Shown: positions 39,793 to 64,000 of the stretch, in pieces | How positions within the stretch are numbered: position 1 is the stretch's first letter | Layout: each line of letters begins with the position of its first letter | Origin: a virus | Length of the DNA stretch: 64,000 nt | Reading direction: 5' to 3' (one strand) | Virus record (IMG/VR): IMGVR_UViG_3300046000_004279 | Span: 46,889-110,888 of that record | The notes under the pieces: model-generated | What the model was told of the DNA's origin: nothing | The model's input: only the letters and a program-made list of their open reading frames with translations | Databases searched by the model: none | Made by a program: the position numbers and the translations under genes

Positions 39793-40779
39793 ATGACAGA
39801 TAAGACCTTACGCGACATTGGCAGACGTAATATAGATTTCCAGCGCGATCTGGTCAAAGAGGTTTTGCCTGAATTTTATGCAGCAGATTATCCAAATCTT
39901 GTCGAGTTTCTTGAAAAATATTACAAAAACCTTGACTCTGATGGTAACTTTTCTCGCAAGATCCATGACCTGTTTGCAACTCGCGACATTCAACAAACAT
40001 CTCAAGAGAACTTAACATATATTGAAGACGAGTTGTTGCTGGGTCAAAACTATCTTGAAGGTTGGTTGAACTCTCGTCAAGCTGCTTTGTTGTCTAACAA
40101 CTTCTATAGATCCAAAGGCACAAAGTACAGTATCGAACGGTTTTTCAGAGCATTCTATGGCCAAGATCCAGTTGTAGAGTATGGTAAAAATTATGTGTTT
40201 ACTATTGGTCAAGATATTGTTGGTCCAAGTAGTGGTAAGTATCTTATTAATGATAAAGTTTACCAATTTTGGGGTATCTTAATTAAAGTGGGTTTACCAG
40301 CTTCTGAGTGGTTAGAACTTTATAAACTGTTTGCCCACCCCGCCGGAATGTATGTTGGTTCCGAAGTTCAATTGGTCAGTGTCAACGGCGATATTAGTTT
40401 TGGCAATATGCCAATTGCTATTGCATCTGTAGACGTCCCAGTATTCTCTGGTCTTGCAACAATTACACCATTCGTGTTTACTGATATTACTGGTATCGAC
40501 ATTAACGACTCTGCAGGCAACTCTTACAGATACAGCCTTGATACGACCGTTATCCAAATTAGCAACAAGTTAGCGGATCAAACTGTTGGATTCTTGGATT
40601 CTGCTGAACCATTCTATAAAAACTTCAAGGATCTTACAAAAGCTGCATCGCCAACATTCGACGAAGATTCAAACGGCGCTGGCTCATCGATGAGAATGTC
40701 AAGTGAGTTTGTAACCTTTGACCTAGACAAATACGATGTTTACCTTGATTCAGACGGCGTGGGTAATCTTGTTCCATAA
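39793..40779 (+). CDS. gp7: baseplate wedge gp7-like (short)
   Basis: YP..VEFL..YY, FYRSKGT..S...FFR, HPAG; ATG at 39793. Confidence 0.8.
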   Translation: MTDKTLRDIGRRNIDFQRDLVKEVLPEFYAADYPNLVEFLEKYYKNLDSDGNFSRKIHDLFATRDIQQTSQENLTYIEDELLLGQNYLEGWLNSRQAALLSNNFYRSKGTKYSIERFFRAFYGQDPVVEYGKNYVFTIGQDIVGPSSGKYLINDKVYQFWGILIKVGLPASEWLELYKLFAHPAGMYVGSEVQLVSVNGDISFGNMPIAIASVDVPVFSGLATITPFVFTDITGIDINDSAGNSYRYSLDTTVIQISNKLADQTVGFLDSAEPFYKNFKDLTKAASPTFDEDSNGAGSSMRMSSEFVTFDLDKYDVYLDSDGVGNLVP

Positions 40780-40783
40780 CCGA

Positions 40784-40791
40784 TATAAATA
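40784..40791 (+). promoter_or_regulatory. T4-type late promoter
   Basis: TATAAATA. Confidence 0.8.
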
Positions 40792-40817
40792 AAACAAAAG
40801 AGTTTTAGGGATTTAGC

Positions 40818-41837
40818 ATGTCAAGACAAACCGTTAATATCGGCACAATAGCAAATGACACTACTGGGGATACCCTCAGACAGGCTGGTAACAAAATTAA
40901 TTCAAACTTTGCAGAGATATACACATCTTTGTATGGTGATAGTGTAACTGCAATCAGTACGCTAACTCTTTCTAACAATGCTATTATCTTTGAAGGATCC
41001 TCAGCAGATTCTTGGGAAACTACTTTTACATTGGTTAATCCAACGGCGGATAGAACAATTAAGCTACCAGATTACACTGGTACTATTGTAGTTGACTCTG
41101 CCACACAGACTCTGTTGAACAAGACTTTGAAAACGCCAGCGTTTACACGCCCTACGATTAAGGATGCTGATTCAAGTCATTCATACACTATTGTTCCTGG
41201 TAATTTAACAGGTAATAGAAATATTAATCTTCCTGTTTTATCTGATAGTGATACTATAGTATTTGCTAGCCTTACACAGACACTTACCAATAAAACTCTG
41301 ACATCACCAACACTTGTCACTCCAAAGATTGACTCAACAATCCAGGATTCTGCAGGCAACCCACTGATTGGTCATTCTGCTGCAGTCTCTGCTGTCAACT
41401 ATATCCAAATCAACAATGCTGCGACTGGTAATCATCCTGGAATTGAAACGGTCGGCACCAGCTCAAATATTAACTTGACGCTGGCGGCCAAGGGAACTGG
41501 AACTATTCAAGTTCGTAGTCGCTTTAACTTGTTATCAGAGACACTAAATGCGGGAGCTGCAGTAAGTACATCGTCTCCCACAACAATATTTAACCACGCA
41601 ACAGCAGAAGCGTTTACCTTAGCTAATGGTGTTACTGAAGGTGATGTTAAAAAGTTTATTAATAGAGGCGCTGGTGAAGCTCGTGTCACTCCAGCCACCT
41701 TCCCATATACAGGTAAAACAAAATTTACATTAAAACAATTTGGTGCAGTTGAAGCCGTTTGGGCATCATCGGGTTGGTTCTTACTGGGCTTAGACTCTAG
41801 TCACGATTCGTCAGCACGTTACATCTTTATTAGCTAA
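40818..41837 (+). CDS. gp9/gp10-like baseplate-fibre connector
   Basis: Q.VNIG..ANDTTGDTLR.AG.KIN.NF.E.Y; TQTLTNKTL repeats. Confidence 0.8.
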   Translation: MSRQTVNIGTIANDTTGDTLRQAGNKINSNFAEIYTSLYGDSVTAISTLTLSNNAIIFEGSSADSWETTFTLVNPTADRTIKLPDYTGTIVVDSATQTLLNKTLKTPAFTRPTIKDADSSHSYTIVPGNLTGNRNINLPVLSDSDTIVFASLTQTLTNKTLTSPTLVTPKIDSTIQDSAGNPLIGHSAAVSAVNYIQINNAATGNHPGIETVGTSSNINLTLAAKGTGTIQVRSRFNLLSETLNAGAAVSTSSPTTIFNHATAEAFTLANGVTEGDVKKFINRGAGEARVTPATFPYTGKTKFTLKQFGAVEAVWASSGWFLLGLDSSHDSSARYIFIS

Positions 41838-41849
41838 TAGGACAATTCA

Positions 41850-43217
41850 ATGTCAGCAATCATTACTGAGCGCATTAAAAAACTTATGATCCAGAATCTG
41901 TATGATGATATTACAGACTCTGCTAACAATTATTATATCGCGATTGGTCGTTCACAGGATTGGGATAGTGCTGATGATGCTCCTACACCAATACCAACAG
42001 ATCGCGAAATTCGCAATTTTAGATTGAGTGCGCAGTCAGCCAAACAAGTAACAGACTATTCTTTTGTTATTCCACGTTTCAATTGGTCAACTGGTACAAC
42101 ATATTACGGATATGACGATAACACAACTGGACATCCTCTAAACACATATTACGTGATTACTGATGACCAAGGTGTTTACATATGCCTACGTCAAGCAAAA
42201 AACACTGCTGGTGCAGCAGTCCCTTCAACTGTAAAACCAACTGGTATCTTAACTACTCCTTTTATTACAGCTGATGGTTACGTTTGGAAGTTCTTGTATA
42301 CAGTTGGTACAACCTATGCAAACAGATTCCTCGCTGCAAACTATATGCCAGTTCGTTTACAAACATTAACTGACTCAAACTCACTAGCCGTTGAAATTGA
42401 ACAAGAGACAATTCAAAACGCAGCGGTTGCTGGTCAAATTGTAGATATTCAATTAATTACTGGTGGTAGTGGTTTCACTTCTGCCCCAACGGTTACAATT
42501 GTGGGTGATGGTACATTGGCCCGTGCGGCCGCTACCGTTTCTGGTGGATCTGTTACAAAAATTACACTTGCTGAAAGTAACGGAACTATTGTGACGGGTA
42601 GTGGATACAGCTTTGCTGAAGTAAGACTTACTGGTGGTGGTGGAACTGGAGTCACTAGTAGAGTTGTTTTGGGCCCTAAAAATGGTCTTGGCGCTGACCC
42701 AAGAGATGATCTACGTGCAACAGCAATTATGTTCAATACCAAACCTGATGGAACAGAAGGCGGAACTTTTGTTGTTAACAACGACTTCCGTCAACTTGCA
42801 TTGGTAAAAAATCCAGAATTGTCTGACAGTGCTGCATTATTTACCGCAGCTGCGGGCAATATGCTTCGTAGATTAAAATTTGCAACAATTTCAACAGTGT
42901 TCAGTGCAGACCATACGCTTTTGGGTGCCACATCTGGTGCAAAAGGATATGTTAATAAGTTTGACTCAGATGAGGTTTGGTATCATCAAACAGAAGATAC
43001 TGGATTCATTCAATTCTCTGAAGGGGAAGTCGTTACTGAGACAGACGGTGCAGGCACTGGTACATTGCTAAGTGTAGGCGCGGATTCGGATACAAGAGCA
43101 TTTATTGCACCAGACATTGATCCGCTTAGTGGCGAGATCCTATATATTGAGAACCGTTCGGCAGTTCAAAGAACTGTTGGTCAGGTTGAAGACATTAAGA
43201 TTATCGTACAGTTATAA
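41850..43217 (+). CDS. gp8: baseplate wedge gp8
   Basis: PR.NW..GT.Y, VYICL, ADGYVWKFLY, SGEILYIENR...QVEDIKIIVQL. Confidence 0.9.
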   Translation: MSAIITERIKKLMIQNLYDDITDSANNYYIAIGRSQDWDSADDAPTPIPTDREIRNFRLSAQSAKQVTDYSFVIPRFNWSTGTTYYGYDDNTTGHPLNTYYVITDDQGVYICLRQAKNTAGAAVPSTVKPTGILTTPFITADGYVWKFLYTVGTTYANRFLAANYMPVRLQTLTDSNSLAVEIEQETIQNAAVAGQIVDIQLITGGSGFTSAPTVTIVGDGTLARAAATVSGGSVTKITLAESNGTIVTGSGYSFAEVRLTGGGGTGVTSRVVLGPKNGLGADPRDDLRATAIMFNTKPDGTEGGTFVVNNDFRQLALVKNPELSDSAALFTAAAGNMLRRLKFATISTVFSADHTLLGATSGAKGYVNKFDSDEVWYHQTEDTGFIQFSEGEVVTETDGAGTGTLLSVGADSDTRAFIAPDIDPLSGEILYIENRSAVQRTVGQVEDIKIIVQL

Positions 43218-43226
43218 GGATACGAC

Positions 43227-46200
43227 ATGGTAACCTCTGTTATTAAGAACACTTTCCTAACTACCTATCGTGACGATTGGAAAGACAGCGACAATTATCA
43301 CCGTATCTTGTTTAACAATGGTCGGTCTTTGCAAGCTCGTGAGCTTACGCAAATGCAGACTATTCTACAGAATCAAATTACTAAATCTGGCGACTTCTTG
43401 TTTAGGGATGGATCTCCTATATCTGGAGGTCAGATCCATCTTTCAACTTCAGCAGAGTTTGTTAAGTTAAATACGGCCGTATACAATTTACCTGTTGACC
43501 CTACGACAATTATTGGTGATATATTTACTGGATCGACGTCTGGAATTGAGGTTCGTATTGATAAAGTGGTTGTTGCGGAAGGTGCAGATCCAGCAACTCT
43601 TTACATATCATACATTGATAACAATAGTTTAACTGCCGCAGACACGACTGCCCCACTTAGGTTAAATGCTGGAGAGACACTAACTGGATTATCAAGCGGT
43701 GTAACTCTACGCGTTCAATCAACAAACACAACTGTAAATCCTTGCGTTGGCCGAGGTTCAACTGTCAGTATTGCTTCTGGCACATACTATGTCGCTGGGC
43801 ATTATGTTTTTGCTGATAATCAAACATTGGTTATTTCAAAGTACTCAACTACGCCTACAGAGAACGTTGGTTTTATCGTAACCGAAGATATTGTAACAGC
43901 TTCCGATAACTCTGCACTTTATGATAACTCTGGTCCAAACCCCAACTTATCAGCCCCAGGGGCGGATCGTTATAGAATTAAATTGACTATCGCTAAAGAA
44001 AGCGAAGTCGACTCTGGTACTGTATTTTTTAATGTTGTTAAAATTGATAATGGGTACATTGTTCAAAGTGCTGATGAGGGAACATCAAGTATTCTCAATA
44101 CTATTGGCGATATTATGGCCAAAAGAACTTCAGAAGAATCTGGTAACTATGTTGTAGATCCATTTATTATAAAGGTACAAACTAATGAAGATAGTGATCA
44201 AAGATTAGATATTGCAGTGGGCCCCGGATTAGCTTATGTTAATGGGTATCGCGTTCAAACCCTAGCTAACACAAACTTCACAATTCCAAAACCGCGTGAT
44301 ACAACTCTTTACCCCAACCAAGTTTCTGCTGTTAACTATGGTAACTATGTAATTGCATCTACGTTGAAGGGTCTTCCAACCATCAACACACTTGCTACAG
44401 TAAATCTAAGAAGTGCAATCACATACGGTGGGTCAACAATTGGAACGGCGCGGGTTCGTGCAATAGAAGAGAATGGCGCTAACTACAATATTTATCTGTT
44501 TGATGTAACAATGAGTGGTGGTAATAGCTTCCGTTCTGTTAGATCAATTGGTGTAAGCTCTGTAAAATATGCAGATTTGATTTTGGAAGACGGTGTAGCA
44601 ACTATTATTGATACGTCAAACAATAATTTGTTCTTCGATCTTCCACGTTATCGCCCAAGTGAATTATCAGATATTGTGTTAACAACTCAACGGCTGTTTA
44701 CTGGAACAACAAGCGGTGCGGGATCTATAACACTAACCGCTGGTACAAGTGAAGTGTTTGATGACGCTAATTCATGGATCACTGTTACCGATAGTAGTGG
44801 CACAGTTACATCTCCATCAATCTCTATCGTAGCACCTTTCACATCAGCGGTATTAACAGGATTACCATTCTCATCAGCTGTTACTGTTGCTGCATATGTT
44901 CAAAAGAACGCTGGATCTGTCAAGACAAAAACACTAACCAATAGAGCTACAACATACACTCCTGATGGTAGTGGTAATATTACACTTGATCGTGCCGATG
45001 TATATCGTATTAACTCTGCAAAACTTGGATCGTCAGTTGGTGCGGACATTACAAGTTATTACACTTTCATTGACGGTCAAAATGATAATTACTATGGTGT
45101 TGGCCAATTATTATTAAAACAAAACAAGACACCCCCTGTCGGTAACATCTATGTTGATTTTGATTTTTTCAACCACGGTGCTAACGGCGATTTCTTTGCT
45201 GCAAATTCATATACTGGTCAAGTTGCCTATGAGAACATACCATCACATACCCAAGCGAATGGTGATGTGATTAATTTGAGGGATGTTCTTGACTTTAGAC
45301 CACGTATTAATGATGCTGGAACAGGATTTACTGGTACGGGCGCTGTTCGTGTTGAACTTCCAAAAAATACTGACTTAGTAAACTTTGATGCTTATTACTA
45401 TAGAGCTCAACGCGGATTAATATCTATCAATCCAGATGGTTCCATGACGGTTGGAACAGGACCATCACTTGTAGTTGATCCAAAATATCCTGATGTGCCG
45501 CCTGACAGTCTTGTACTATATCGATTTGCAATCAATCCATATATGGTTGATGATTTGGATATGACAAGCGAATATATGCGCTACAGACATTACGACATGG
45601 CGGCAATTGGTAAGTTGGAAGATCGTTTAGATCGACTTGAAGAGTTAACTACTTTATCACTACTAGAGCTTGAAACCGCTAATATTCGAGTTCTTGACTC
45701 GGCGGGTGTTGATCGTTTGAAGGCTGGTTTTACTGCTGATAATTTCAGCAGTCATGGTTATTCTGATTTTAATAATCCAGAATATGCTGCATCTATCGAC
45801 TTTCAACGTCGACAACTTCGCCCAGAATTTGTTCAACGTTCTATTGAATTGGTGTACGATTCTGCGGCTTCTGTAGGAACAATCCTAAAGGGCGATACTG
45901 TTTACATGCAGTATTCAAATACTCTGTGGAAACAACAACCGACATTCACATCTAGCGAAGATGTTACATCTTTTGAAATTGCAAAAATGGTTGGAGAGAT
46001 TAAACTTTCACCAGCTTCAGATGTTTGGTTTGACGAAGAAACAAAACCTAAGAAAATCGTTGACGGTGGATTCGACCTTGATGTTAAATCGACAAGAACG
46101 TGGGCTGGATGGAATGGTGATTGGTCTGGATGGGACGATACTGAACTTGCTGCATTAAAGGTCGGTGATGATTTAAACTCAGGAACCGTTACAGATACAG

Positions 46201-46970
46201 GTACTCGTACATACAAATCAGGCAATTACAAATACACTGTAAAAGATCGAACCAAGTATACAAACGAAGTTTCATCAATATACACCGTTAATGTCCCTGG
46301 TCCAAGACTCGTTACTAAGAAATCTATTCCATATCAACGTGCAAAGTTTGTGTTTTTTAAAGCTACAAACCTAAGACCGAATACTAGATTCTTTGCTTTC
46401 TATAATAATACAAATGTAAGTAGTTGGATTAATACCAGTATATCTTTTACGAATTATGGATCTCTGTCTAGAACATCGCCTTATCTAGAAGCGGGTAACA
46501 TCTATAACGCTAATACTCAGTTTCCAGCAAGTTTGGGTGGTCCAACTGATATCTATTCTAACGCTGATGGGACTATTGAGGGTGTGTTTTTAATTCCAAA
46601 TACATCTACTTTAAAATTTCCAACAGGAACAAACAAATTAACATTAATTGATATTAGCGTTTTAAATTTAGATACAGCTATATCTTATGCAGAAGCCGAT
46701 TTTACATCATCTGGCATGTTAACAACATATCAAGATCAAACAATTAGCACACGCATGGTAAAAATAGTTACAGATACAGAACAGTTGGATCCAATTCAAA
46801 TTAGTAAAACAAGAATTCCAAGAGATCCGCCAGAACCATCGAAACCAACCCCAAGAGAACCAACTGGTAATAACTCTGGCGGAGGAGGTAATGGCGCCCA
46901 AGTTCAGAAAATGCCGGTTTGCAAACCGCCGAAGGTTTCGAACGGTGGTGGGGTCGGAAAGCCCCGCTAA
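43227..46970 (+). CDS. large virion protein, VrlC/DUF4815-like, N-terminal part
   Basis: Y.DD.....NYHRILF..G..LQARELTQMQTILQNQ, APGADR, ESGNY.V.PF, M..IGKLE.R...LE..T.LSLLE. Confidence 0.85.
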   Translation: MVTSVIKNTFLTTYRDDWKDSDNYHRILFNNGRSLQARELTQMQTILQNQITKSGDFLFRDGSPISGGQIHLSTSAEFVKLNTAVYNLPVDPTTIIGDIFTGSTSGIEVRIDKVVVAEGADPATLYISYIDNNSLTAADTTAPLRLNAGETLTGLSSGVTLRVQSTNTTVNPCVGRGSTVSIASGTYYVAGHYVFADNQTLVISKYSTTPTENVGFIVTEDIVTASDNSALYDNSGPNPNLSAPGADRYRIKLTIAKESEVDSGTVFFNVVKIDNGYIVQSADEGTSSILNTIGDIMAKRTSEESGNYVVDPFIIKVQTNEDSDQRLDIAVGPGLAYVNGYRVQTLANTNFTIPKPRDTTLYPNQVSAVNYGNYVIASTLKGLPTINTLATVNLRSAITYGGSTIGTARVRAIEENGANYNIYLFDVTMSGGNSFRSVRSIGVSSVKYADLILEDGVATIIDTSNNNLFFDLPRYRPSELSDIVLTTQRLFTGTTSGAGSITLTAGTSEVFDDANSWITVTDSSGTVTSPSISIVAPFTSAVLTGLPFSSAVTVAAYVQKNAGSVKTKTLTNRATTYTPDGSGNITLDRADVYRINSAKLGSSVGADITSYYTFIDGQNDNYYGVGQLLLKQNKTPPVGNIYVDFDFFNHGANGDFFAANSYTGQVAYENIPSHTQANGDVINLRDVLDFRPRINDAGTGFTGTGAVRVELPKNTDLVNFDAYYYRAQRGLISINPDGSMTVGTGPSLVVDPKYPDVPPDSLVLYRFAINPYMVDDLDMTSEYMRYRHYDMAAIGKLEDRLDRLEELTTLSLLELETANIRVLDSAGVDRLKAGFTADNFSSHGYSDFNNPEYAASIDFQRRQLRPEFVQRSIELVYDSAASVGTILKGDTVYMQYSNTLWKQQPTFTSSEDVTSFEIAKMVGEIKLSPASDVWFDEETKPKKIVDGGFDLDVKSTRTWAGWNGDWSGWDDTELAALKVGDDLNSGTVTDTGTRTYKSGNYKYTVKDRTKYTNEVSSIYTVNVPGPRLVTKKSIPYQRAKFVFFKATNLRPNTRFFAFYNNTNVSSWINTSISFTNYGSLSRTSPYLEAGNIYNANTQFPASLGGPTDIYSNADGTIEGVFLIPNTSTLKFPTGTNKLTLIDISVLNLDTAISYAEADFTSSGMLTTYQDQTISTRMVKIVTDTEQLDPIQISKTRIPRDPPEPSKPTPREPTGNNSGGGGNGAQVQKMPVCKPPKVSNGGGVGKPR

Positions 46971-47016
46971 TGATAAATATGAATATCTTGCAAGTCAATA
47001 AAGGCTGAGAAAATAA

Positions 47017-48606
47017 ATGGCACAAAATTATACATCACGTTATTATCACCCAATTGCTCAAACGTTTCACGTTAATAATGATCAGGGAGTCTTTATTACT
47101 CAATTAGGACTATTTTTTACTCAGAAGTCTACGCGATTTCCTGTGTCAGTGGAGATTAGGCCAACTCTTGCAGGCGCGCCAGATTCTTTTATTGTTTTGC
47201 CAGATTCGGTTGTTACTAAATCCCCAGGAAGTGTTAACGTAGCTTCCAATGGTTCTGCAGAGACATTATTTGAATTTGATGAACCAATATATCTTGCGCC
47301 TAAAACTTACTATGCAATTATTGTAAAAACATACGCCACTGGCGCAGATGGATATAATGTTGCAACAGCTAAACTCGGTGAATTTTTGTTTGGATCAACG
47401 GTGACTAGATTCACGGGTGATTTAGATCCTGGGGTGTTTTTTAAGTCTTCAAACGCAGTCACTTGGACCGAAAATCAAGAACAAAATCTAAAATACAAAT
47501 TGTATCGTGCTTCATTTACCCCAACAACTGCTTCGGCTGTTTTTGTTGATGCTAACACACCGCGCAGAAAACTAGCGGCGGATCCGTTTTATGTTGACTC
47601 TGGATCAAATTCAATTATTGTGTCGCACCCTAATCACGGTTTTCAAGTAAGTGATCGTGTTTATATCTCAGGATTAACAGCTGCTACTCGTTATAATGGT
47701 ATTTTGGGATCAAGTATTGTTGGTCGTAACTTAATCACTGCTGTTGACGGTAGTGGGTATAGCTTTAATGCTGACTCAAGTTCGACTAGCAAAGGTGATT
47801 TTGGTGGTAGTAGCATTTTGGCTACACAACAATATTTAATGGATGTGGGTCAATTACAAATCCAAGCGGCCGTGCCGCCGACAACTACTATAACATATAG
47901 TGGTGAGTTTACGACATCTAAATCTTTTGCTAGTGCCACAGAGACCGCATACGCTTCTGGGGATCTTATATTTATCGAAAATCAAAAAGATATATATTTT
48001 GCTCAGCCACACGTCATTATGAACGACTCAAATGAAGTTCTCAATATTGGTGGTGGTACATCAACGACTATTACAGGTACAATGAATAGAGCATCAAGTA
48101 ATAATTTTATCGCTCCCGCCATTGATTTGCAAAGAGCTAACCTCTTAGCTATTAACAACCTTATTGATAATCCAGATTCGGTCGCAACAAGTGGGTTTAA
48201 CGTACCACTGCAGTTTGTTGCTGAAACAGATCGGTCTGGGGGATCATCACTAGCTAAACACATTACAATTCCAATCACATTGGCAGAGCCTGCTGTTGGT
48301 GTTAAAATTATCTTTGCGGCTAATAGACCAGATGGAACAAACTTTAAAGTATACTATAGGGTTGTAGAAGCGGGTGCTGATGTTAATATTAAAACACTAC
48401 CTTGGATTGAAGAGTTAATCGACGTTCCTATGCCAACAGACCAAAATCCAACTAAGTATAGAGAATACAGATACACAGTTGGTGGTGAATATATTGGAAC
48501 AATACAACCGTTCACCAAGTATCAAGTGAAGATTGTTATGACTTCGGTTTCTTCATCCATCATTCCAAGAATTAAGGATCTGAGAACCATTGCATTGGGT
48601 GTATAA
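47017..48606 (+). CDS. VrlC-like virion protein, C-terminal part
   Basis: PIAQTF.V....GVF.T...LFF, F.F..PIYL, FFKS.N..TW, PRIKDLR.IA. Confidence 0.82.
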   Translation: MAQNYTSRYYHPIAQTFHVNNDQGVFITQLGLFFTQKSTRFPVSVEIRPTLAGAPDSFIVLPDSVVTKSPGSVNVASNGSAETLFEFDEPIYLAPKTYYAIIVKTYATGADGYNVATAKLGEFLFGSTVTRFTGDLDPGVFFKSSNAVTWTENQEQNLKYKLYRASFTPTTASAVFVDANTPRRKLAADPFYVDSGSNSIIVSHPNHGFQVSDRVYISGLTAATRYNGILGSSIVGRNLITAVDGSGYSFNADSSSTSKGDFGGSSILATQQYLMDVGQLQIQAAVPPTTTITYSGEFTTSKSFASATETAYASGDLIFIENQKDIYFAQPHVIMNDSNEVLNIGGGTSTTITGTMNRASSNNFIAPAIDLQRANLLAINNLIDNPDSVATSGFNVPLQFVAETDRSGGSSLAKHITIPITLAEPAVGVKIIFAANRPDGTNFKVYYRVVEAGADVNIKTLPWIEELIDVPMPTDQNPTKYREYRYTVGGEYIGTIQPFTKYQVKIVMTSVSSSIIPRIKDLRTIALGV

Positions 48607-48812
48607 TGGATAATTATATTAAGGTTGATGGTCAACCAAGTCTTGTTCGTGATAGAAACTCTGGCGCTATAATCAATATAAATAGCACTGAGTTTGAAAA
48701 AGCGCGCTTAGCTAAGCAAGCCAAAAAACGTCAAGAACAAAAGCTGCAAGATCTAGAGAATGACGTAATTGAAATAAAAGCCTTGCTCCGACAACTGATA
48801 GAAAAGAGCTAA
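48606..48812 (+). CDS. small conserved protein with C-terminal coiled coil
   Basis: KV.G...L.RD..SGAIIN; EIK.LL. Confidence 0.75.
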   Translation: MDNYIKVDGQPSLVRDRNSGAIININSTEFEKARLAKQAKKRQEQKLQDLENDVIEIKALLRQLIEKS

Positions 48813-48813
48813 G

Positions 48814-52740: not shown

Positions 52741-52743
52741 TAA

Positions 52744-53682: not shown

Positions 53683-53691
53683 GGATTTATT

Positions 53692-54282: not shown

Positions 54283-54941
54283 ATATTATCTTCGTGAATT
54301 TTGGCACCAAGTATACACCTTGGGACGTCAATCGACTTTATGATGGTTTGAAGAAATACGACAAAGGCTTCAAATATTATGTTTACACTGACAATGGTAT
54401 TAAAGATCTGGGGCTATACGGCTTAGATTTTACCGTTGTAAAACCAATGAAACCAAACTTGCCAAAATGGTGGAACAAGCTCGCTATGTTTAGTGAGGCA
54501 TTTCCAGCTAAAGGTAAGAATCTGTATTTTGATTTAGATACTGTTATCAAAGGCGATCCCTTCACGATATTAGATAATATTGATTGGGATAAGTTAACAA
54601 TGATTGACTGTCATTGGAAATCAAAAGATATCGTTCGGTTAACCAACTTGGATGTTACAGTTAACTCATCAGTGTTAGCATGGCATTCAGACAATCCTAA
54701 AATTCATAATATTTGGAACCATTTCAACAGTGGTTACAAAGACTATTATCTAAGAAAATATGTTGGGATCGATAGGTTTTTAGCTCACGAACCTTTTGAA
54801 AAAGATATGTTTGCTTACTTTCCACACGACTACGTTATGTCATATAAGTATGAAAGCCATGATAAAGTGGCCCCTGTGATAACCTTTGAGGAACTTGATT
54901 TTGGATCAATTGATACTGTACAGATCACTCAAGCTAGTTGA
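54279..54941 (+). CDS. GT-A-fold glycosyltransferase-like protein
   Basis: GTKY....V..LY, WWNKL.MF, LYFDLDTVI (DxD), NSSV..W. Confidence 0.8.
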   Translation: MNIIFVNFGTKYTPWDVNRLYDGLKKYDKGFKYYVYTDNGIKDLGLYGLDFTVVKPMKPNLPKWWNKLAMFSEAFPAKGKNLYFDLDTVIKGDPFTILDNIDWDKLTMIDCHWKSKDIVRLTNLDVTVNSSVLAWHSDNPKIHNIWNHFNSGYKDYYLRKYVGIDRFLAHEPFEKDMFAYFPHDYVMSYKYESHDKVAPVITFEELDFGSIDTVQITQAS

Positions 54942-55539
54942 AGAGATCTATGATGAGTCTATGTACGGTGATCCTGATATCTATAGGATTAAGGACATTG
55001 TCCATAGTGTAGACATTAACCATTGGAGAAGTAAACAATGGTTGGTTGATATGTTTAGTCAAGTATACGGATTTGAATCTGGTAAGGTGTTTGTCGCTGG
55101 TGGGTGGTATGGTCTTTTAAGTTTTCTACTGCGTAAGAGATATCCCAACAAATCGTTTAATATTACATCTGCTGATATGGATCCAAAGTGTGAGCAGTTT
55201 GGTTACAAATTGTTTCCTGATCAAGACATTCAATTTCAAACAATGGATGTTGTTAAGACTGATCAAACGTTTGATGACTGCACTGCAATCATTTGCACCA
55301 GTTGTGAGCACATCGATAAGGATGATCTTGCGTTCTTCATTAGCGGTAAGCCTGAAAACGCTTGGCTGATCCTACAGACAAACAACTACAAAGACCTTGC
55401 ATCCCATGTCAACTGTAGCGAGAGCCTTGAAGAATTTGTGGAGTTCGTTAGCAAGGTGTTACCAAGTGATACGTATTGGGCATACAAAGGTGCACTTAAT
55501 CTTGGAGACTTCACGCGTTATATGGTTATTGTCAGATGA
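54886..55539 (+). CDS. class I SAM-dependent methyltransferase (start may be 54901)
   Basis: SKQWL, V.GGWYG, S.D.DP.C, CTSCEH. Confidence 0.78.
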   Translation: MRNLILDQLILYRSLKLVEEIYDESMYGDPDIYRIKDIVHSVDINHWRSKQWLVDMFSQVYGFESGKVFVAGGWYGLLSFLLRKRYPNKSFNITSADMDPKCEQFGYKLFPDQDIQFQTMDVVKTDQTFDDCTAIICTSCEHIDKDDLAFFISGKPENAWLILQTNNYKDLASHVNCSESLEEFVEFVSKVLPSDTYWAYKGALNLGDFTRYMVIVR

Positions 55540-56399
55540 AAAGAATAATCTTTACAATTTTTATTGACATCCCCGATGAAGATTTGGATAACCCAGCACC
55601 TTATTCGGCAGAGGGTGTTCAACAAGTAACTGATAAAAGCAAAAAGACTAAAGATCAATTAACCAAATACAAAGATCGGTTGATTGATAGACAACAGCAG
55701 TATGCTGACAAACTAGGTGTTGAGTATAAGGTCTATCAGTGGGATCAGACTTATACTGACTTTGTTGATCATTTTAAGCAAAACTACCCACAGATTTCTC
55801 ACTATGATATCATCTGTTTCTATAAGCATCATATAATGTTGTTGCTTGCAGAACAGTATGATCAAGTGTGTTATTTTGATTTGGATGTTATCCCCAATAC
55901 GGATGAAAGTATATTTGAAGCATTTGACATAACTAATACATTTGCCGTTCCAGATTCGAATAAGGAAGCTGAGTGGGGTAAAACAGTCAATGCAAAATAC
56001 TATAACACGTGCATTCGTAACCCCGCGACGAAGTATTGGAATGCTCATGCGATGTTATGGGAAGAAGGTTTTGAACCTGATCAACATGTCTACAACACGG
56101 GTATAATGATCGCTTCAAGTGAGATTATTAAGAAACTAGATTACTTTGGTGAGTTTCAATCAACAATTAATCTAATGACATACCTAAAAAATCAAACACC
56201 ATCAATGTATCCTAAAAACATCCAAAGAGTGTTTAACTATGATAACGAGACTATTTTTAGTTACAAGCTGATTAGCAATAATGTTCAATCAACGTTGTTG
56301 GGTGATATGTGGCATCATGCTGTTGATAAAATACCCCATGATCCAGCAGCCAAGATGTATCATGTGATTAACAAAAAATTTCAGATATTCTTTGAATGA
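55536..56399 (+). CDS. GT-A-fold glycosyltransferase-like protein
   Basis: YA..LG..Y, YK, YFDLDVI (DxD), YNTGIM, DNET, HVINK. Confidence 0.78.
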   Translation: MKRIIFTIFIDIPDEDLDNPAPYSAEGVQQVTDKSKKTKDQLTKYKDRLIDRQQQYADKLGVEYKVYQWDQTYTDFVDHFKQNYPQISHYDIICFYKHHIMLLLAEQYDQVCYFDLDVIPNTDESIFEAFDITNTFAVPDSNKEAEWGKTVNAKYYNTCIRNPATKYWNAHAMLWEEGFEPDQHVYNTGIMIASSEIIKKLDYFGEFQSTINLMTYLKNQTPSMYPKNIQRVFNYDNETIFSYKLISNNVQSTLLGDMWHHAVDKIPHDPAAKMYHVINKKFQIFFE

Positions 56400-57094
56400 A
56401 AGTATTTTGTGTTAGAATTGGTGACAAGTATGGTGTTGAGTACGAAGATTATATTAATGCTAAGTTAAAAGATTATGAAGTAGTTTGGATAAGAGATCCA
56501 TTTAGAGACGATGTTGCTCTACAATGGAATAAAATGCTGCCGATGTCAATGGATATTGACGAACCTGTTTGTGTAATTGATATAGATTTACTTCTTATCA
56601 ATGATTACAAACAGGTTTTTGATTATCCAATATCCAGAGGTCAGTTCCTCACGATTAACGATTGGGTCAGTGCTAATTCAAATTACCCTATCAATGGCGG
56701 ATTCTTTAAATACAATCCAAAAGACGTTAACTACATCTTCAATAAGTTTATGCAAGATCCAATCTATTGGCAAAACTACTACATCGCTAAAGGTATTGCC
56801 CGTGGGCCTGTTAATGGTGAACAACACTTTGTCTACGACTCAGCCAAAGAGCAATTGAAAGTCGTGACGTTACCTCCTAGCTGGTTTACGAGATGGTCAA
56901 CAGAGAGTGCAATTACTCATACTGATTACGACCATTGGCAATTAGAATTAAATAAGTTGTATAGAGAAAAAACAAGCAAAGACTATCTTTTCATGGGTGA
57001 AGAGTTTCATCCTGATGTAAAGATTGTTCACTTTACTCATGCAATGAATAAACCGCATGAGTGGGTTTATTATGATTCTTATAAATCACTGTAA
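56396..57094 (+). CDS. GT-A-fold glycosyltransferase-like protein
   Basis: GDKYG..Y, QWNK, VIDIDLL (DxD), NGGFF, GEQ.F, KIVHFT...NKP. Confidence 0.78.
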   Translation: MKVFCVRIGDKYGVEYEDYINAKLKDYEVVWIRDPFRDDVALQWNKMLPMSMDIDEPVCVIDIDLLLINDYKQVFDYPISRGQFLTINDWVSANSNYPINGGFFKYNPKDVNYIFNKFMQDPIYWQNYYIAKGIARGPVNGEQHFVYDSAKEQLKVVTLPPSWFTRWSTESAITHTDYDHWQLELNKLYREKTSKDYLFMGEEFHPDVKIVHFTHAMNKPHEWVYYDSYKSL

Positions 57095-57104: not shown

Positions 57105-57112
57105 TATAAATA
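57105..57112 (+). promoter_or_regulatory. T4-type late promoter
   Basis: TATAAATA. Confidence 0.8.
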
Positions 57113-57144: not shown

Positions 57145-57495
57145 ATGGCTCAATATGAAGACATAACAATTGATCAGGGTGCTGATGTTGCAGTTGAGAT
57201 TCATCTGATTAACAAAGATGGATCTGCAAAGAATTTAACTAACCATTCTATTGCTGCAAAGATGAAGCGTACTTACAATAGTGATAGTGCTGATACGCTA
57301 GCATTCAATTGTATTGTTGCTGCTCCAGCATCGGGTGGTGTTGCCACAATATCATTAACAAATATTCAGACCAGCACGTTAAAAGCTGGGCAATACGTTT
57401 ATGATGTTGAGATGTCATTTGCAGATAGTAGTGCTACTATTGTTGAGCGTGTCCTAGAAGGTAAAATTTTAGTAACCCCATCAGTGACTAGGTAA
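57145..57495 (+). CDS. BppU-N-like fibre adaptor protein
   Basis: I.IDQGAD, G....SLT..QT..L.AG.YVYDVE, R.LEG...VTP.VT. Confidence 0.78.
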   Translation: MAQYEDITIDQGADVAVEIHLINKDGSAKNLTNHSIAAKMKRTYNSDSADTLAFNCIVAAPASGGVATISLTNIQTSTLKAGQYVYDVEMSFADSSATIVERVLEGKILVTPSVTR

Positions 57496-57499: not shown

Positions 57500-57754
57500 A
57501 TGGCAATTACAGTTGGTACTGGGATTACAGCTAAAAAAGTAATTGTGGTCGGTTCGACAACTCAAGTTAAACAGGTTACTGTTGGGACTCCCGTTAAAAG
57601 AGTTACATCTGGCGCATTTAACATAAATAACCTTAGTGGTGTTGACACAACGGGTGCTGTTGAAGGAAGTTTATTAATTTATAGTACTGCAGTATCCAAA
57701 TGGGTGGCTAGCAAAGACTTACAAGAACAAAACATTAACGGAGGCAGTTACTAA
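57500..57754 (+). CDS. small virion protein
   Basis: L..VD.....GSLL.Y.....KW, C-terminal INGGSY. Confidence 0.7.
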   Translation: MAITVGTGITAKKVIVVGSTTQVKQVTVGTPVKRVTSGAFNINNLSGVDTTGAVEGSLLIYSTAVSKWVASKDLQEQNINGGSY

Positions 57755-59331
57755 TGGCCGCTATAATTAGAATTAAAAGATCCACAAGTGCATCTGCGCC
57801 TGTAACACTAAAAACAGGTGAACTGTCTTATTCGGCGGGTGTTGGTACAAGTGCAAACGGAGGCGACCGTCTCTATTTTGGTAAGGGCGACGATGGATCG
57901 GGCAACGCTACTACAGTTGAAGTAATTGGTGGTGCCTATTTTGGCAATCTATTGGACCATACTGCTGGTACACTGACTGCATCAAGTGCAATTATTGTTG
58001 ACGCGAGTAGCAAGATTGATAACTTAAAGGTTGACAATCTTGACCTCAATGGTAACACAATTAGTTCCACTGACACCAACGGCAACATTATTATCAGCCC
58101 CAATGGATCTGGATCTGTCAACGTAGACACATCTAAAATCATCAACGTTAGTGATCCTGCTTCTGCTCAAGATGCGGCCACTAAAAATTATGTTGATGGA
58201 TTATTTGCTGGTGCCGCCTCAGTCTTTAAAATTGCAGGAGACGCTGGAACTCTAGATTCTATTTTTGGTGGTGGCACTGTTACTTTCCAAGGTGACTCTG
58301 ACATCCTCACCACTATCACAAACAATAAGATTGCCTTTACTCATAGAACGTCAAGTGTTACTGCTGGAACATATGGGTCAACATCATCAATTCCAGTATT
58401 CAGAGTAAATGCAAATGGTCACATTGATTCTGCCACTACTGTTAGTCTTGCGACAACATTAAACACAGCTGGCGAAACGGGCACAGGCAGCATTGCCCTT
58501 CTTACACAGACGCTAACACTTGCTGCAGGCGAAGGTATTGATACTACCGCTAGTGGTCAAACTATTACTATTGCAGCAGAGTTGGCCACTTCTGCTAACA
58601 AAGGTGTTGCGAGCTTTGATGCTACAGATTTTACGGTAACCACAGGAAACGTTGTTGCTAACCCAATCTATCTTGGTACAACACGATTAGACCTAGGTGA
58701 AACCGATTCTAACCTTGCTGGTTTGAATTCTATTGAAGTTGGGGATGTTCGTATCACATCGAACGTAATCAGTTCAAGAACCACTGGAACACTGATTATC
58801 GATCCAAATCCAATTGGTGACTCTGCTGGTGGATTTGCTGGTGAACTTATTGTTCGTGGTAACTTGACTGTTCAAGGTACAACAACTACAATTAACTCAA
58901 CAACCGTTTCGGTCAATGACAAGAACATTGTTCTAGCTGATAGTGCAGCTAATGCGACTGCTGCGGATGGCGCTGGACTAACTATTGGTGGTGCACTTTA
59001 TGCTGGTACTAAAGCAACAATTCTTTACGATGGTGTAACAGACCGTTGGGACTTCAATAAGCCACTCGACATTGGATTTGCTACACTAGACAGCGCCGTT
59101 AAACTAAATGGTGTTGGATTAAGAGAGGCTATTGAAGATCACCTTGTTACCAACTTCTTCTTAGAAGGTGAAGGTATTGATCTCACATATGTTGATGCAT
59201 CTAATACTTTAACTGTGGCCGCTGAGTTAGCTACATACACTAACAAGGGTGTTGCGAGCTTTGATTCTGCTCAATTTACTCTTACAAGTGGTTTTGCAAC
59301 AATATCTGTCATTGATGGCGGAACATACTAA
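57754..59331 (+). CDS. tail fibre protein
   Basis: IRIKRS....P..L..GEL, DAATKNYVD, GNLTVQGTTTTINST, IDGGTY end. Confidence 0.85.
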   Translation: MAAIIRIKRSTSASAPVTLKTGELSYSAGVGTSANGGDRLYFGKGDDGSGNATTVEVIGGAYFGNLLDHTAGTLTASSAIIVDASSKIDNLKVDNLDLNGNTISSTDTNGNIIISPNGSGSVNVDTSKIINVSDPASAQDAATKNYVDGLFAGAASVFKIAGDAGTLDSIFGGGTVTFQGDSDILTTITNNKIAFTHRTSSVTAGTYGSTSSIPVFRVNANGHIDSATTVSLATTLNTAGETGTGSIALLTQTLTLAAGEGIDTTASGQTITIAAELATSANKGVASFDATDFTVTTGNVVANPIYLGTTRLDLGETDSNLAGLNSIEVGDVRITSNVISSRTTGTLIIDPNPIGDSAGGFAGELIVRGNLTVQGTTTTINSTTVSVNDKNIVLADSAANATAADGAGLTIGGALYAGTKATILYDGVTDRWDFNKPLDIGFATLDSAVKLNGVGLREAIEDHLVTNFFLEGEGIDLTYVDASNTLTVAAELATYTNKGVASFDSAQFTLTSGFATISVIDGGTY

Positions 59332-59385: not shown

Positions 59386-62300
59386 ATGACTTATCCTACT
59401 ATTAAGTTAAAGCGGTCCTCTGTCTCAGGCAGGGTTCCCGACTCTTCTAGTTTAGAATATGGTGAGTTAGCGCTTAACTATACAGATGGAAAACTTTATT
59501 GGAAGTCGGCTTCTAATATTGTCAAAAGTCATATCATTGATTCGGAAGTTCAAGACGTTCTTACGAGAATGGTGGTTAACCAAGAGTTTGGTAATAGAAC
59601 AACTGATAGTTTGAATGAAGGTAGTATTAATCTATATTACACTCGTGTTAGATCAGAATCCGACATCACCGATATTGTAGATTCTGCTTATATTCAATTC
59701 TTACAACTACGTTATCTTGATTCAGCAAATGCTATCAATTTAATTGACTCTGCGTATATTCAGGCAAGACAGTCGTTTGGCACTGGAATAGATTCAGCTG
59801 ATATTATACTGCTCATTGACTCTGCATATGTTAATGCCCGTTTAAATAGATCCCTGTTCTTAGATTCTGCTGAAGCTATTAATTTAATTAATGTTTACGG
59901 ATTTGACTCAACAAACTTTAATGGTATGTTTGCAGCAAAGTCTACAACAGGTTTAAGCGAAGGTACAAACAAGTATTACACAAAAGCTAGAGCTGACTCG
60001 GACGATAAGTTTCCAACGACATTTACTTATACCGCTGGTACAACTGCTGGTCCAACAGGATCCTTAACAGGTACAAACCTCACTGCAATTTCATTTGCAG
60101 CCATTCCATCCGCAGGTGCATCAGCTTCTGGTATTATTACTACTGACACACAGACAATTGCTGGCGCTAAGACATTCAGCAGCACAATTACAGGTTCTGT
60201 CTCAGGTAACGCTGGAACAGCAACTACTCTTGCAACTGGCAGAACAATTGGTGACGTATCATTCAACGGCAGCGCAAACATTGTTCCAGAACGCACATTG
60301 TTCAAAGACACAAGAGCAGTCAATCATAACCCATACACCTATCCAGGCACAACTCTACATCTAAAACAAAATACTACAGATGGTTTGGCTGATGGTGGAA
60401 CATACCACGGCGTGCTAGATTTGCAACATTGGACTGATAGCTCAGGTGGTAAGAACCACCAGCTAGGTCTAACTGATAATAATAATATCTACATTCGCGC
60501 TTCCACTAACGCCACTACATGGGGTAGTTGGGTTAAGATAATTGATTCTGGTGACACCACAGCTTTAAACACTGCAAATACATTGGTGCGCCGTGATGCT
60601 AGTGGTAACTTCTCTGCAGGTACAATCACGGCAGCTTTGACAGGCAACGCTAGCACAGCGACAACTCTTGCAAGTAGCCAGAACTTCTCATTAACAGGTG
60701 AAGTTACTGCATCAGCAGTTAGCTTTAACGGATCTGGTGCTGTAGCTTTAAATACAACCATTGCAGCAAACGCCGTCGACTCTTCTAACATCCTTGCACT
60801 GTCGATATCGTCAGGTAAGATTCAAAGCGGTGCAGTCACAACAGCTAAGTTTGCCACAGGTGCAGTTGATTCTAACGCTCTTGGTGCTTTATCTGTATCA
60901 TCTGCTAAGTTGCAAGGTAGTATTCCTGACACAAAATTAGCGACCATTTCAACCGCCAGTAAGGTCGCAAACTCAGCAACAACAGCAACAAATCTAAATA
61001 CTGCAAGCGCCATTGTTGCAAGAGATGGTAGTGGTAACTTTACTGCTGGAACAATTACCGCAGCTTTGACAGGTAATGCTAGCACAGCGACAACTCTTGC
61101 AACTGGTCAGAACTTTTCGCTAACTGGCGAAGTTACTGCATCAGCGGTTAGCTTTAACGGATCTGGCGCTGTAGCATTATCAACAACCATTGCATCAAAC
61201 GCAGTTGACTCTTCCAATATTCTTGCACTGTCAATATCGGCAGGTAAGATTCAAAGCGGTGCAGTCACAACAGCTAAGTTCGCTACTGGCGCGGTCGACT
61301 CCAATGCCCTTGGCGCTCTGTCAGTGTCCTCAGCTAAACTACAAGGTAGCATTCCTGACACTAAGCTAGCGACGATCTCAACTGCAAGTAAAGTTTCTAA
61401 CTCAGCTACAACTGCTACGAACTTAAACACCGCCAGCGCTATTGTTGCAAGAGACGGTAGTGGTAACTTTACAGCTGGAACAATCACAGCAACCTTGTCA
61501 GGTAGCGCATCAACTCTTACGACTGCACAGAACTTCTCATTAACAGGAGAGGTTACAGCCCCTACAATTAGCTTTAACGGATCTGGCGCTGTTGCCTTAA
61601 ATACAACCATTGCATCAAACGCAGTTGACTCTGCTGCACTTGGCGCTCTGTCGGTATCAACCGCTAAGATTCAAAGTGGTGCAATCACAACTGCAAAGTT
61701 CACAGCAGGCGCAGTTGACTCTAACGCTCTTGGCGCTCTGTCTGTATCATCAGCTAAGATTCAAAACAACGCTGTAGCTCTTGGAACCCAAACAACTGGT
61801 AACTATGTAGCTAGCGCGTCTGCCGCCAATGGTGTTAAAATTACTGGAACAGCGGGAGAAGGTTGGACACCAACTGTATCTCTCGACTCCACTGGTACAG
61901 GCACAATTGGCAACTTAACTGTTGGTAGCAATCTTATCGTAAGCGGTAACTTGACCGTGTCTGGTACGACCACAAGTATCAATACTGAAACTGTTACCAT
62001 TAACGATAATATTATCGTATTGAATAATAATGCTACAGGTGTTCCAGGCGCTAGTGCATTATTCAATGCTGGTATTGAAGTAGAACGGGGTGATTCTAGC
62101 AACGTTCAGGTGCTGTGGAATGAAGTAAGTAACCGTTGGAGTTTCACAAACGATGGAACCAACTACCACAATATCCCAACATCAGATGAATACATTGACA
62201 GTGCTACATCCAAGTATCCAACAACCTATACTTGGACAGGTGGAACAACTGCGGGGCCAACTGGATCTCTAACAGGTAACAACCTAACAGCAATATCTTT

Positions 62301-64000
62301 TGGTGCAATTCCATCTGCAAGTGCTACAGCTTCTGGTATCGTTACAACAGACACACAAACAATTGCTGGCGTGAAAACATTCAGCAGCACAATTACAGGT
62401 TCTGTCTCAGGTAACGCTGGAACAGCAACTACGCTAGCTACGGGTCGCGACTTCTCATTAACAGGTGAAGTTACAGCTCCTGCAATCAGCTTTAACGGAT
62501 CTGGCGCTGTAGCATTATCAACAACAATTGCAGCAAACGCTGTCGACTCTTCTAACATTCTTGCACTATCAATATCGTCAGGCAAGATACAAAGTGGAGC
62601 TATTACAACTGCAAAGTTTGCAACAGGTGCGGTCGACTCTGCTGCGCTTGGCGCTCTGTCGGTATCGTCAGCTAAACTGCAAGGCAGTATCCCTGACAGT
62701 AAGCTAGCGACCATTTCAACTGCAAGCAAGGTTGCAAACTCAGCTACTACAGCAACAAATGCAAACACTGCTAACGCTATTGTTGCTAGAGATGCGAGTG
62801 GAAACTTTAGTGCTGGGACAATCACGGCTAATGTAACGGGAACCGTAACAAACGGAGCCTTAACTACAGGCACGCTTGCACAATTCGCAGCGACTACTTC
62901 ATCGCAACTTGCTGGTGTTATATCGGATGAAACAGGTAGTGGTGCATTAGTATTTGGCACAAGTCCAACACTAACTACCCCTACTCTCGGTGTTGCATCT
63001 GCAACAACTATTAATAAAGTAACGTTAACAACACCTGCTACTGGTTCCACATTAACAATTGCAGATGGAAAAACACTAACAGCAAGCAACACATTAACTT
63101 TTACAGGCACTGATGCCTCATCTGTTGCTTTTGGAACTGGTGGTACTGTAGCTTACACTGCTAACAAACTTTCGGTGTTCGCAGCAACTACATCCGCCGA
63201 ATTAGCTGGTGTTATATCGGATGAAACAGGTAGTGGTGCATTAGTATTTGGCACAAGTCCATCATTTACTACCGGTATTGATGCAGCAAGTGCCACTATG
63301 GCATTGTTTGATACAACAGCCACTACTATTAATTTTGCTGGTGCAGCAACAACTGGTAACTTTGGTTACGATGCTACCGCAGCCAGTACTACAAATATAT
63401 CAACAGGTGCTGTTGCAGCCGCTACTACAAAAACGGTAAACCTAGGCACAGGTGGTGCAGCTAGTTCTACTACTAATATTAATATTGGCTCAAGTGTTGG
63501 CGGTACTACTGCTATCGCTAGTCCGACAGTCACATTTGCTGGTCTAGCAGACACCGCAACCACCGCAACACATTACTATGTAGAAACAGCTAGTGGAAAC
63601 ATATTACCAAAAACATTAGCAAACGTTAAAACTGAAATAGTAACAACTGCTGCAGTAAATAGCGCCGCTGCAACCACTGTTGGTACAGTTACTAGTGGTA
63701 CTTGGAGCGGATTGTTTGGTGCAGTATCTGGCGCAAACTTAACAAGTTTAACTGCTGGTAACTTATCAGGAACCATACCATCAGGTGTGTTAGGTAACTC
63801 GGCGCTGTTTATTGGTACAACTTCGGTTGCATTAAACAGAACTACAGCTAACCTTGGATTAACAGGTATTACTTCCATCGCGATGCCTGGTTCTACATCA
63901 GGGACAATTACTGTAACACCTACCGCAACAGCGGGAACAACATCAATAACTATCCCCGCTACAACAGGCACATTGGTCACAACAGGTGATACTGGCTTTT
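59386..64000 (+). CDS. long tail fibre protein (partial, >1500 aa, runs off the window; absent from ORF track)
   Basis: MTYPTIKLKRSSVSGRVP..LEYGELALNYTDGKLY; RBS AAGGA; still in frame at 63961. Confidence 0.85.
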   Translation, partial: MTYPTIKLKRSSVSGRVPDSSSLEYGELALNYTDGKLYWKSASNIVKSHIIDSEVQDVLTRMVVNQEFGNRTTDSLNEGSINLYYTRVRSESDITDIVDSAYIQFLQLRYLDSANAINLIDSAYIQARQSFGTGIDSADIILLIDSAYVNARLNRSLFLDSAEAINLINVYGFDSTNFNGMFAAKSTTGLSEGTNKYYTKARADSDDKFPTTFTYTAGTTAGPTGSLTGTNLTAISFAAIPSAGASASGIITTDTQTIAGAKTFSSTITGSVSGNAGTATTLATGRTIGDVSFNGSANIVPERTLFKDTRAVNHNPYTYPGTTLHLKQNTTDGLADGGTYHGVLDLQHWTDSSGGKNHQLGLTDNNNIYIRASTNATTWGSWVKIIDSGDTTALNTANTLVRRDASGNFSAGTITAALTGNASTATTLASSQNFSLTGEVTASAVSFNGSGAVALNTTIAANAVDSSNILALSISSGKIQSGAVTTAKFATGAVDSNALGALSVSSAKLQGSIPDTKLATISTASKVANSATTATNLNTASAIVARDGSGNFTAGTITAALTGNASTATTLATGQNFSLTGEVTASAVSFNGSGAVALSTTIASNAVDSSNILALSISAGKIQSGAVTTAKFATGAVDSNALGALSVSSAKLQGSIPDTKLATISTASKVSNSATTATNLNTASAIVARDGSGNFTAGTITATLSGSASTLTTAQNFSLTGEVTAPTISFNGSGAVALNTTIASNAVDSAALGALSVSTAKIQSGAITTAKFTAGAVDSNALGALSVSSAKIQNNAVALGTQTTGNYVASASAANGVKITGTAGEGWTPTVSLDSTGTGTIGNLTVGSNLIVSGNLTVSGTTTSINTETVTINDNIIVLNNNATGVPGASALFNAGIEVERGDSSNVQVLWNEVSNRWSFTNDGTNYHNIPTSDEYIDSATSKYPTTYTWTGGTTAGPTGSLTGNNLTAISFGAIPSASATASGIVTTDTQTIAGVKTFSSTITGSVSGNAGTATTLATGRDFSLTGEVTAPAISFNGSGAVALSTTIAANAVDSSNILALSISSGKIQSGAITTAKFATGAVDSAALGALSVSSAKLQGSIPDSKLATISTASKVANSATTATNANTANAIVARDASGNFSAGTITANVTGTVTNGALTTGTLAQFAATTSSQLAGVISDETGSGALVFGTSPTLTTPTLGVASATTINKVTLTTPATGSTLTIADGKTLTASNTLTFTGTDASSVAFGTGGTVAYTANKLSVFAATTSAELAGVISDETGSGALVFGTSPSFTTGIDAASATMALFDTTATTINFAGAATTGNFGYDATAASTTNISTGAVAAATTKTVNLGTGGAASSTTNINIGSSVGGTTAIASPTVTFAGLADTATTATHYYVETASGNILPKTLANVKTEIVTTAAVNSAAATTVGTVTSGTWSGLFGAVSGANLTSLTAGNLSGTIPSGVLGNSALFIGTTSVALNRTTANLGLTGITSIAMPGSTSGTITVTPTATAGTTSITIPATTGTLVTTGDTGF
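60601..61760 (+). repeat. 429-nt (143-aa) tandem coding repeat, with a further copy near 62450-62820
   Basis: AGTGGTAACTT anchors at 60601, 61030 and 61459. Confidence 0.85.
62911..63261 (+). repeat. exact 57-nt direct repeat (62911-62967 and 63205-63261)
   Basis: GCTGGTGTTATATCGGATGAAACAGGTAGTGGTGCATTAGTATTTGGCACAAGTCCA twice. Confidence 0.9.

Follow-up and report, generated by a model that had tools for sequence, protein, structure and literature searches.

The locus described here has its closest published counterpart in the host recognition cluster of pelagimyophages, which is a hypervariable island that separates VrlC from the neck genes and is occupied by fibre genes, GT8 glycosyltransferase genes and radical-SAM (S-adenosylmethionine) cassettes (Zaragoza-Solas et al. 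2020, mSystems, PMC7029224). The cluster is already thought to set host range, and its transferases have been proposed to modify the O-chain of the host (PMC7029224). A second point of comparison is provided by α/β coiled coils, found in trimeric adhesins and phage fibres, whose nonads have the consensus [aliphatic]-A-T-K-[polar]-[D/E] (Hartmann et al. 2016, eLife, PMC4786415). We analysed a window of 64 kb, the terminal part of one 110,888-bp viral contig (IMG/VR record IMGVR_UViG_3300046000_004279), in which the dipeptide Asp-Ser (DS) is over-represented in the outer baseplate and fibre proteins. An earlier sequence-only reading of this DNA had proposed that DS is a modification sequon used by glycosyltransferases of the phage. 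The explanation we favour, tentatively and with a probability of about 45%, is that the DS excess mainly reflects a structural building motif peculiar to one clade of T4-like phages, which are uncultured, marine and related to the pelagimyophages.

The region resembles the host recognition cluster in both position and content. VrlC-like open reading frames (ORFs) occupy positions 43227-48606, and the window holds three fibres, one GT8 gene and two other GT-A-like genes. In G001, a close relative sharing 86% identity in the gp10-like protein, the genes that come after the fibres are gp13-, gp14- and gp15-like or encode the large terminase subunit and the sheath. Because of this VrlC, fibre and GT8 layout, and the neck genes gp13 and gp14 that come after the fibres in G001, we equate the stretch from about 48.6 kb to the end of the window with the cluster. 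Two differences were noted. The radical-SAM genes lie elsewhere in this genome, whereas in relatives they are inside the island; and the available portion of the published description mentions no Asp-Ser motif (PMC7029224), while the cultured phages HTVC008M and Mosig have no DS excess. Matches to PHROG and Pfam families gave a T4-like gene order: gp48, gp53, a hub/gp5-like gene, gp25, gp6, a gp7-like N-terminal protein, a gp9/10-like connector, gp8, VrlC in two parts, fibres, the enzyme cassette, a fibre chaperone and further fibres. The gp6 protein is closest to that of Phage C48C1 (42.5%), followed by Pelagibacter and Methylophilales myophages (32-35%). The best matches of gp6 and the cassette genes to Pelagibacter phages have 32-36% identity, and by these genes the closest cultured relatives are SAR11 phages; a SAR11-like host is likely, judged by relatedness only. 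A megablast search of the region against phage records gave no match.

For the statistical analysis we pooled eight outer baseplate and fibre ORFs (6287 residues), in which 99 DS were observed and 37.3 expected (about 2.6-fold, z about 10). The hand counts on which the claim of an outer enrichment had been based were reproduced. DS ranks first for enrichment among 253 dipeptides in this set, while the remainder of the 110.9-kb genome contains 102 DS versus 113.8 expected (ratio 0.9). The excess is directional, since the reverse pair Ser-Asp occurs at expectation (40 vs 39.9), and Asp-Thr is depleted (ratio 0.56). Shuffling within blocks of 10 residues yielded 40.4 DS (standard deviation 5.7) in place of the observed 99, and this, together with the normal Ser-Asp count, rules out composition or co-localisation in loops as the cause. 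Collapsing the repeat copies left 73 distinct DS sites versus 37 expected, which rules out repeat inflation alone. Serine codons at DS are ordinary (70% TCN vs 67% elsewhere) and GANTC occurs as often as expected; selection therefore acts on the protein, as had been proposed from the sequence, and a DNA-level cause, in which GAY-TCN would be kept as the CcrM site GANTC, was rejected on the same grounds.

The excess is distributed unevenly among the outer proteins, all encoded on the plus strand. It is weak in the gp7-like/wedge N-terminal protein (39793-40779; 5 DS vs 2.3 expected) and pronounced in the gp9/gp10-like baseplate-fibre connector (40818-41837; 339 residues with 16 Asp, 9 DS vs 1.7), the N-terminus of which matches T4 gp10 and gp9. 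The gp8 baseplate wedge protein (41850-43217; PF09215) has 6 DS versus 2.2. The N-terminal part of the VrlC-like protein (43227-46970; 1247 residues) had been listed as enriched with 6 DS; we counted 7 versus 7.9 expected, so that no enrichment exists there, and the C-terminal part (47017-48606) has 6 versus 2.4. Among the tail fibres, the one at 48814-52740 has 33 DS versus 9.9, sixteen of them within a 25-residue repeat AINELDSDIGxRSSL; the one at 57754-59331 has 8 versus 3.5, with orthologues ranging from 0.3 to 3.6 times expectation; and the long fibre at 59386-63999, which runs past the end of the window, has 25 versus 7.4, including 11 in its first 204 residues, six of them as DSA. The inner baseplate and hub (29366-39791) show the opposite, with 6 DS versus about 14.5-17 expected (P<=0.004) and a normal Ser-Asp count. 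The inner proteins had been described as free of DS, which holds for the ORFs starting at 29366, 30334, 31058, 35435 and 37523 but not for those at 32422 and 33388, with 1 and 3 DS, respectively; gp6 has only 2, as stated.

Among uncultured relatives the same partition was found, with ratios of about 0.5 in the inner baseplate, 1.3-2.0 in gp7, gp10, gp8 and fibres, and about 1 in VrlC. The gp8 family (120 proteins, >=52% identity) contains 815 DS versus 355 expected, and the giant fibres of some relatives reach 85 versus 20 expected. In G001 a gp15-like tail sheath stabiliser homologue (L052:14623-15402) has 5 DS versus 1.6 expected, and the sheath 2 versus 3.5. Outside this group, the outer proteins of T4 have 37 DS versus 31.3 expected (1.18), the ratio is about 1 in S-PM2 and about 1.2 in Mosig, and HTVC008M has 1.4 in its fibres and 0.98 in gp8. 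Rhizobium and Agrobacterium phages have repeats homologous to the AINE unit of the 48814 fibre, and these lack DS. We found no cultured phage with a DS excess. Since T4, S-PM2, HTVC008M and Mosig do not show it, the excess is specific to the clade; with the Rhizobium phage fibre added to these four, a general property of T4-like fibres is ruled out.

The surroundings of DS point to a structural role. An aliphatic residue precedes 47% of DS sites (26% background); at the position after the serine (+1), A or D is about 3 fold over background and A, D, S, N and G together make up 79% (42% background); and L or I at +6 is about 2.5 fold over background. The context in relatives is the same as in the window. 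The motif can be summarised as hydrophobic-Asp-Ser-(Ala/Asp/Gly/Ser) with a further hydrophobic residue at +6, and Asp is the more conserved member of the pair. In a confident predicted model of gp8 (predicted local distance difference test score, pLDDT, 87.8) six of six DS sites fall in loops or turns, which tells against the sequon proposal, as its author had named DS acting only in caps or turns among the refuting outcomes. D372-S373 is located in a β-hairpin turn of this model and is shared by 108 of 119 homologues, and at the remaining gp8 sites the homologues keep D while S is swapped with G or A. In the gp10-like protein D41 and D177 are invariant and S42 nearly so; structure prediction of its monomer was uninformative, residues 42-238 having a pLDDT below 50.

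DS also recurs at fixed distances. In 32 non-redundant DS-rich fibres of relatives, the DS-to-DS distances cluster sharply at 9 residues (145 of 1071), with lesser peaks at 13, 15 and 25, the recurrence at 9 being 4.6 fold over expectation, while 82 DS-poor fibres showed nothing comparable to the 9-residue peak. The arrays in the fibres of the window have periods of 25, 30 and 9/15 residues; those of the 59386 fibre comprise a DSA array with 9/15-residue spacing (residues 99-174) and AVDSxxLxALS repeats spaced by 30 residues. Short motifs set 9 residues (and 6+9) apart in a trimeric fibre recall the β-layers of α/β coiled coils, and the 57754 fibre contains, at about residue 150, a canonical β-layer/short-neck-like motif, QDAATKNYVD, which is conserved across orthologous fibres. 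However, the DS units are mostly aliphatic-D-S-A and not the published consensus. A search for homologues of the two long fibres with solved structures found none. By analogy with the capping residues of β-layers, Asp may act as a turn or N-cap residue that opens each short structural unit of a trimeric shaft.

The sequon proposal leads to the expectation that DS follows the enzymes. As the sequence-only reading had seen, three GT-A-like genes and a methyltransferase gene lie between the fibre genes, and family matches and homology bear this out. On the plus strand, they encode a GT-A-like glycosyltransferase (54279-54941; phrog_1962 at 1.5e-8), a class I SAM methyltransferase-like protein (54886-55539; a homologue of the 'putative methyltransferase' of Mosig), a GT8-family glycosyltransferase (55536-56399; PF01501 at 8.6e-7, with D115 and D117 of the DxD motif invariant) and a nucleotide-diphospho-sugar transferase-like GT-A protein (56396-57094), identified by protein-atlas similarity and homologous to the 54279 product (hhalign probability 96.7%). 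We anchored 71 loci on the fibre chaperone and compared observed with expected DS in the fibres that follow. Fibres after cassette-bearing loci had 710 DS versus 255 expected (median ratio 2.8), and those after loci with an alternative cassette 881 versus 640 (median ratio 1.33). In an unbiased scan of gene families, the 54279/56396 family turned up in 21 of the 28 loci classed as DS-high and in 7 of the 26 classed as DS-low.

The raw association is thus present, but exceptions were found in both directions. Loci anchored on GT8 are bimodal, thirteen having fibre ratios of 2.1-3.6 and eight ratios of 0.3-0.9 although they carry the cassette; cassette-bearing phages without a fibre excess are Mosig and, at ratios of 0.3-0.9, L129/130, L135, L140, L150, L165, L191 and L192. 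Conversely, the fibres of G004/G005, L116 and L062/L066, which lack the cassette, are 2-3 fold enriched in DS. The excess in gp8 is similar under both cassette types. On the chaperone tree we count only about three changes of cassette type, which gives 1-3 independent pairs, and a test on so few pairs has no power. Given the exceptions both ways, the few independent changes and the labile orthologues of the 57754 fibre, the coupling between DS and the cassette appears loose in these sequence comparisons. One outcome that the earlier reading had named as refuting its proposal, DS enrichment in relatives without the glycosyltransferases, was in part observed.

Our preference for the structural motif rests on the conserved turn positions, the hydrophobic residues around DS, its fixed periods and its decoupling from the cassette. 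Several observations weigh against it. The excess is specific to the clade, being absent from T4, S-PM2, HTVC008M and the DS-free Rhizobium repeat; DS varies from 0.3 to 3.6 fold among orthologous fibres; the excess spans unrelated folds; it is strictly directional, with Ser-Asp at expectation and Asp-Thr depleted; and DS is avoided in the inner baseplate and hub (6 vs 14.5). Moreover, about 80% of DS sites lie outside the 9-residue arrays. The specificity to the clade, the lability, the spread over unrelated folds, the directionality and the inner avoidance look like selection on the dipeptide itself and are poorly explained by structure alone. These features keep a modification sequon alive, and the structural and the modification explanations are not mutually exclusive.

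The sequon explanation involves a larger set of genes than the four of the cassette. A T4-type late promoter, TATAAATA, occurs at six sites in the window, all on the plus strand, five of which are just upstream of structural genes (29355, 37494, 40784, 48677 and 57105). The site at 48677-48684 precedes the 48814 fibre and the cassette, and that at 57105-57112 precedes the tail-fibre assembly chaperone-like protein (57145-57495, plus strand; phrog_1084/3304) and the distal fibres. The cassette is probably transcribed late, in one unit with the 48814 fibre, since we found no convincing terminator from 48677 to 57094. Between this fibre and the first transferase gene, also on the plus strand, lie genes for a Thr/Ala-rich, probably structural protein of 312 residues (52744-53682), which has no DS and no family match, and for a protein without assigned function (53692-54282). 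The former is conserved beside the cassette in many relatives and in Mosig (44% identity). Mosig carries homologues of five genes of the region in a sugar cluster on the opposite strand, with an epimerase, a nitroreductase-domain protein and a carbamoyltransferase.

A plus-strand cluster at 5999-13951 of the window encodes radical-SAM/SPASM, carbamoyltransferase and SGNH-like proteins. Homologues of the radical-SAM/SPASM and carbamoyltransferase genes are contiguous with the glycosyltransferase and methyltransferase genes directly upstream of the fibre chaperone in L097, L079, L082, L091, L103 and L063-65, in an orientation that varies between phages; the same slot in L062 holds five radical-SAM genes and a carbamoyltransferase. 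This contiguity indicates that the loci at 5999-13951 and 54279-57094 are one split island of the glycan-tailoring type. Together, the cassette of the hypervariable cluster and these genes would probably build a tailored glycan, for which the host envelope and the virion are both possible acceptors. The alternative cassette, found in the same slot in 36 chaperone-anchored loci (as in L049:6215-7647), consists of ORFs of 248 and 238 residues, neither of which matches Pfam; the former has only motif-level similarity to the GT8 family in hhalign (YDxxxYVDADM) and is a putative transferase. Genes of the Asp/Asn β-hydroxylase family are present upstream of the window on its own contig (12251-12706, minus strand; 6413-7342, plus strand) and within the fibre-island cassette of the relative G002 (L051:6854-7507, minus strand).

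Were DS a glycosylation site, its serines would be O-glycosylated late in infection by the phage's own cytoplasmic GT-A transferases. The glycan, tailored by the radical-SAM, carbamoyltransferase and methyltransferase proteins, would coat the outer baseplate and fibres and serve in shielding, stability or host attachment, and inner proteins would avoid DS to escape modification. We regard this as possible but doubtful. It would account well for an enrichment that acts at the protein level, is directional and Ser-specific, affects unrelated outer proteins with depletion in the inner baseplate and hub, and is specific to the clade and labile among orthologues. The late unit starting at 48677 and the raw association, both in the median ratios and in the 54279/56396 family, agree with it. 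Precedents are the extension of O-glycans on Ser-rich adhesins by GT8 and GT-A enzymes and the glycosylation of mycobacteriophage virions by transferases that these phages encode. Freeman and colleagues (2023; work mentioned in PMC11256854) reportedly found that the phage transferases act on Ser/Thr-rich extensions at the C-termini of capsid and tail tube proteins. As in those phages, transferase genes here adjoin virion genes, but DS is dispersed, confined to the outer baseplate and fibres, and only a putative target. Serines of repetitive surface proteins are O-glycosylated in the cytoplasm by SdgA/SdgB (Ser-Asp repeats) and TibC/AAH (autotransporter heptosylation). These share with the present case an acidic or repeat context and repetitive, fibrous substrates; they are GT-B enzymes or heptosyltransferases, in contrast to the GT-A/GT8 proteins here, and the architecture of their substrates differs.

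On the other side stand the exceptions between DS and cassette and the small number of cassette changes (about three, 1-3 independent pairs), which makes the association inseparable from ancestry. The excess in gp8 is indifferent to the cassette type, the orientation of the cassette relative to the fibre genes is not conserved, the sheath has no excess (2 vs 3.5), and both the hydrophobic residues around DS and its fixed periodicity are what a packed structural position would show. In the published work these transferases are read as modifying the host O-chain, which is equally a proposal (PMC7029224). Our literature searches on glycosylated fibres of T4-like or marine phages found nothing relevant. 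The Bacteroidota sequon D-(S/T)-(A/I/L/V/M/T) was considered separately. Its likeness lies in an Asp before a hydroxyl residue and in the frequent Ala at +1; here, however, Thr is avoided (Asp-Thr ratio 0.56), D, G and S are common at +1, and the residues permitted by the sequon at this position are at background (47% vs 46%), which rules it out. Bacteroidota O-glycosylation acts in the periplasm, while virions assemble in the cytoplasm, and the likely host is SAR11-like; a sequon or host of this type is unlikely, which for the host agrees with the earlier reading. The full scenario, in which transferases of the host recognition cluster would attach O-glycans to the outer baseplate and fibres of this widespread clade at serines in hydrophobic-Asp-Ser-small, with radical-SAM, carbamoyl- and methyltransferase tailoring and with inner proteins purged of the motif, seems to us rather unlikely as a whole.

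It is improbable that DS is read by another process, such as Asp β-hydroxylation, protein modification by radical-SAM/SPASM enzymes or recognition by the fibre chaperone. The genome does encode proteins of the Asp_Arg_Hydrox family, one of which is found in the G002 cassette; radical-SAM/SPASM clusters fill the slot upstream of the chaperone in L062 and L070, and the L062 fibres are enriched 2.7 fold in DS; and in some relatives small chaperone-like and post-fibre ORFs are themselves DS-rich. However, we know of no enzyme of the hydroxylase or radical-SAM families with a D-S sequon. Lipid hydroxylases also belong to the hydroxylase family, which is part of the pelagimyophage core (PMC7029224) with or without the excess, as HTVC008M illustrates. 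Finally, an artefactual origin of the excess in composition, repeat copies or a motif at the DNA level, suggested by the roughly one third of DS sites in tandem repeat copies and by the GANTC spelling, is most implausible in view of the 73 distinct sites, the survival of the excess after block shuffling, the normal Ser-Asp count, and TCN and GANTC frequencies no higher at DS than elsewhere or than expected.

Outer enrichment combined with inner depletion provides a clean, testable signal under either the structural or the modification explanation, and the clade that carries it is common in the ocean, with more than 1600 gp8 homologues, many of them from Tara Oceans samples. If DS is a sugar site, the transferases of the island would act on the virion and not, as published, on the host envelope, and DS would be the first sequon of virion glycosylation described for a T4-like phage. 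A structural DS, the case we favour, would be a recognisable, partly nonad-like motif of fibre shafts that aids the annotation and modelling of unannotated giant fibres in marine viromes.

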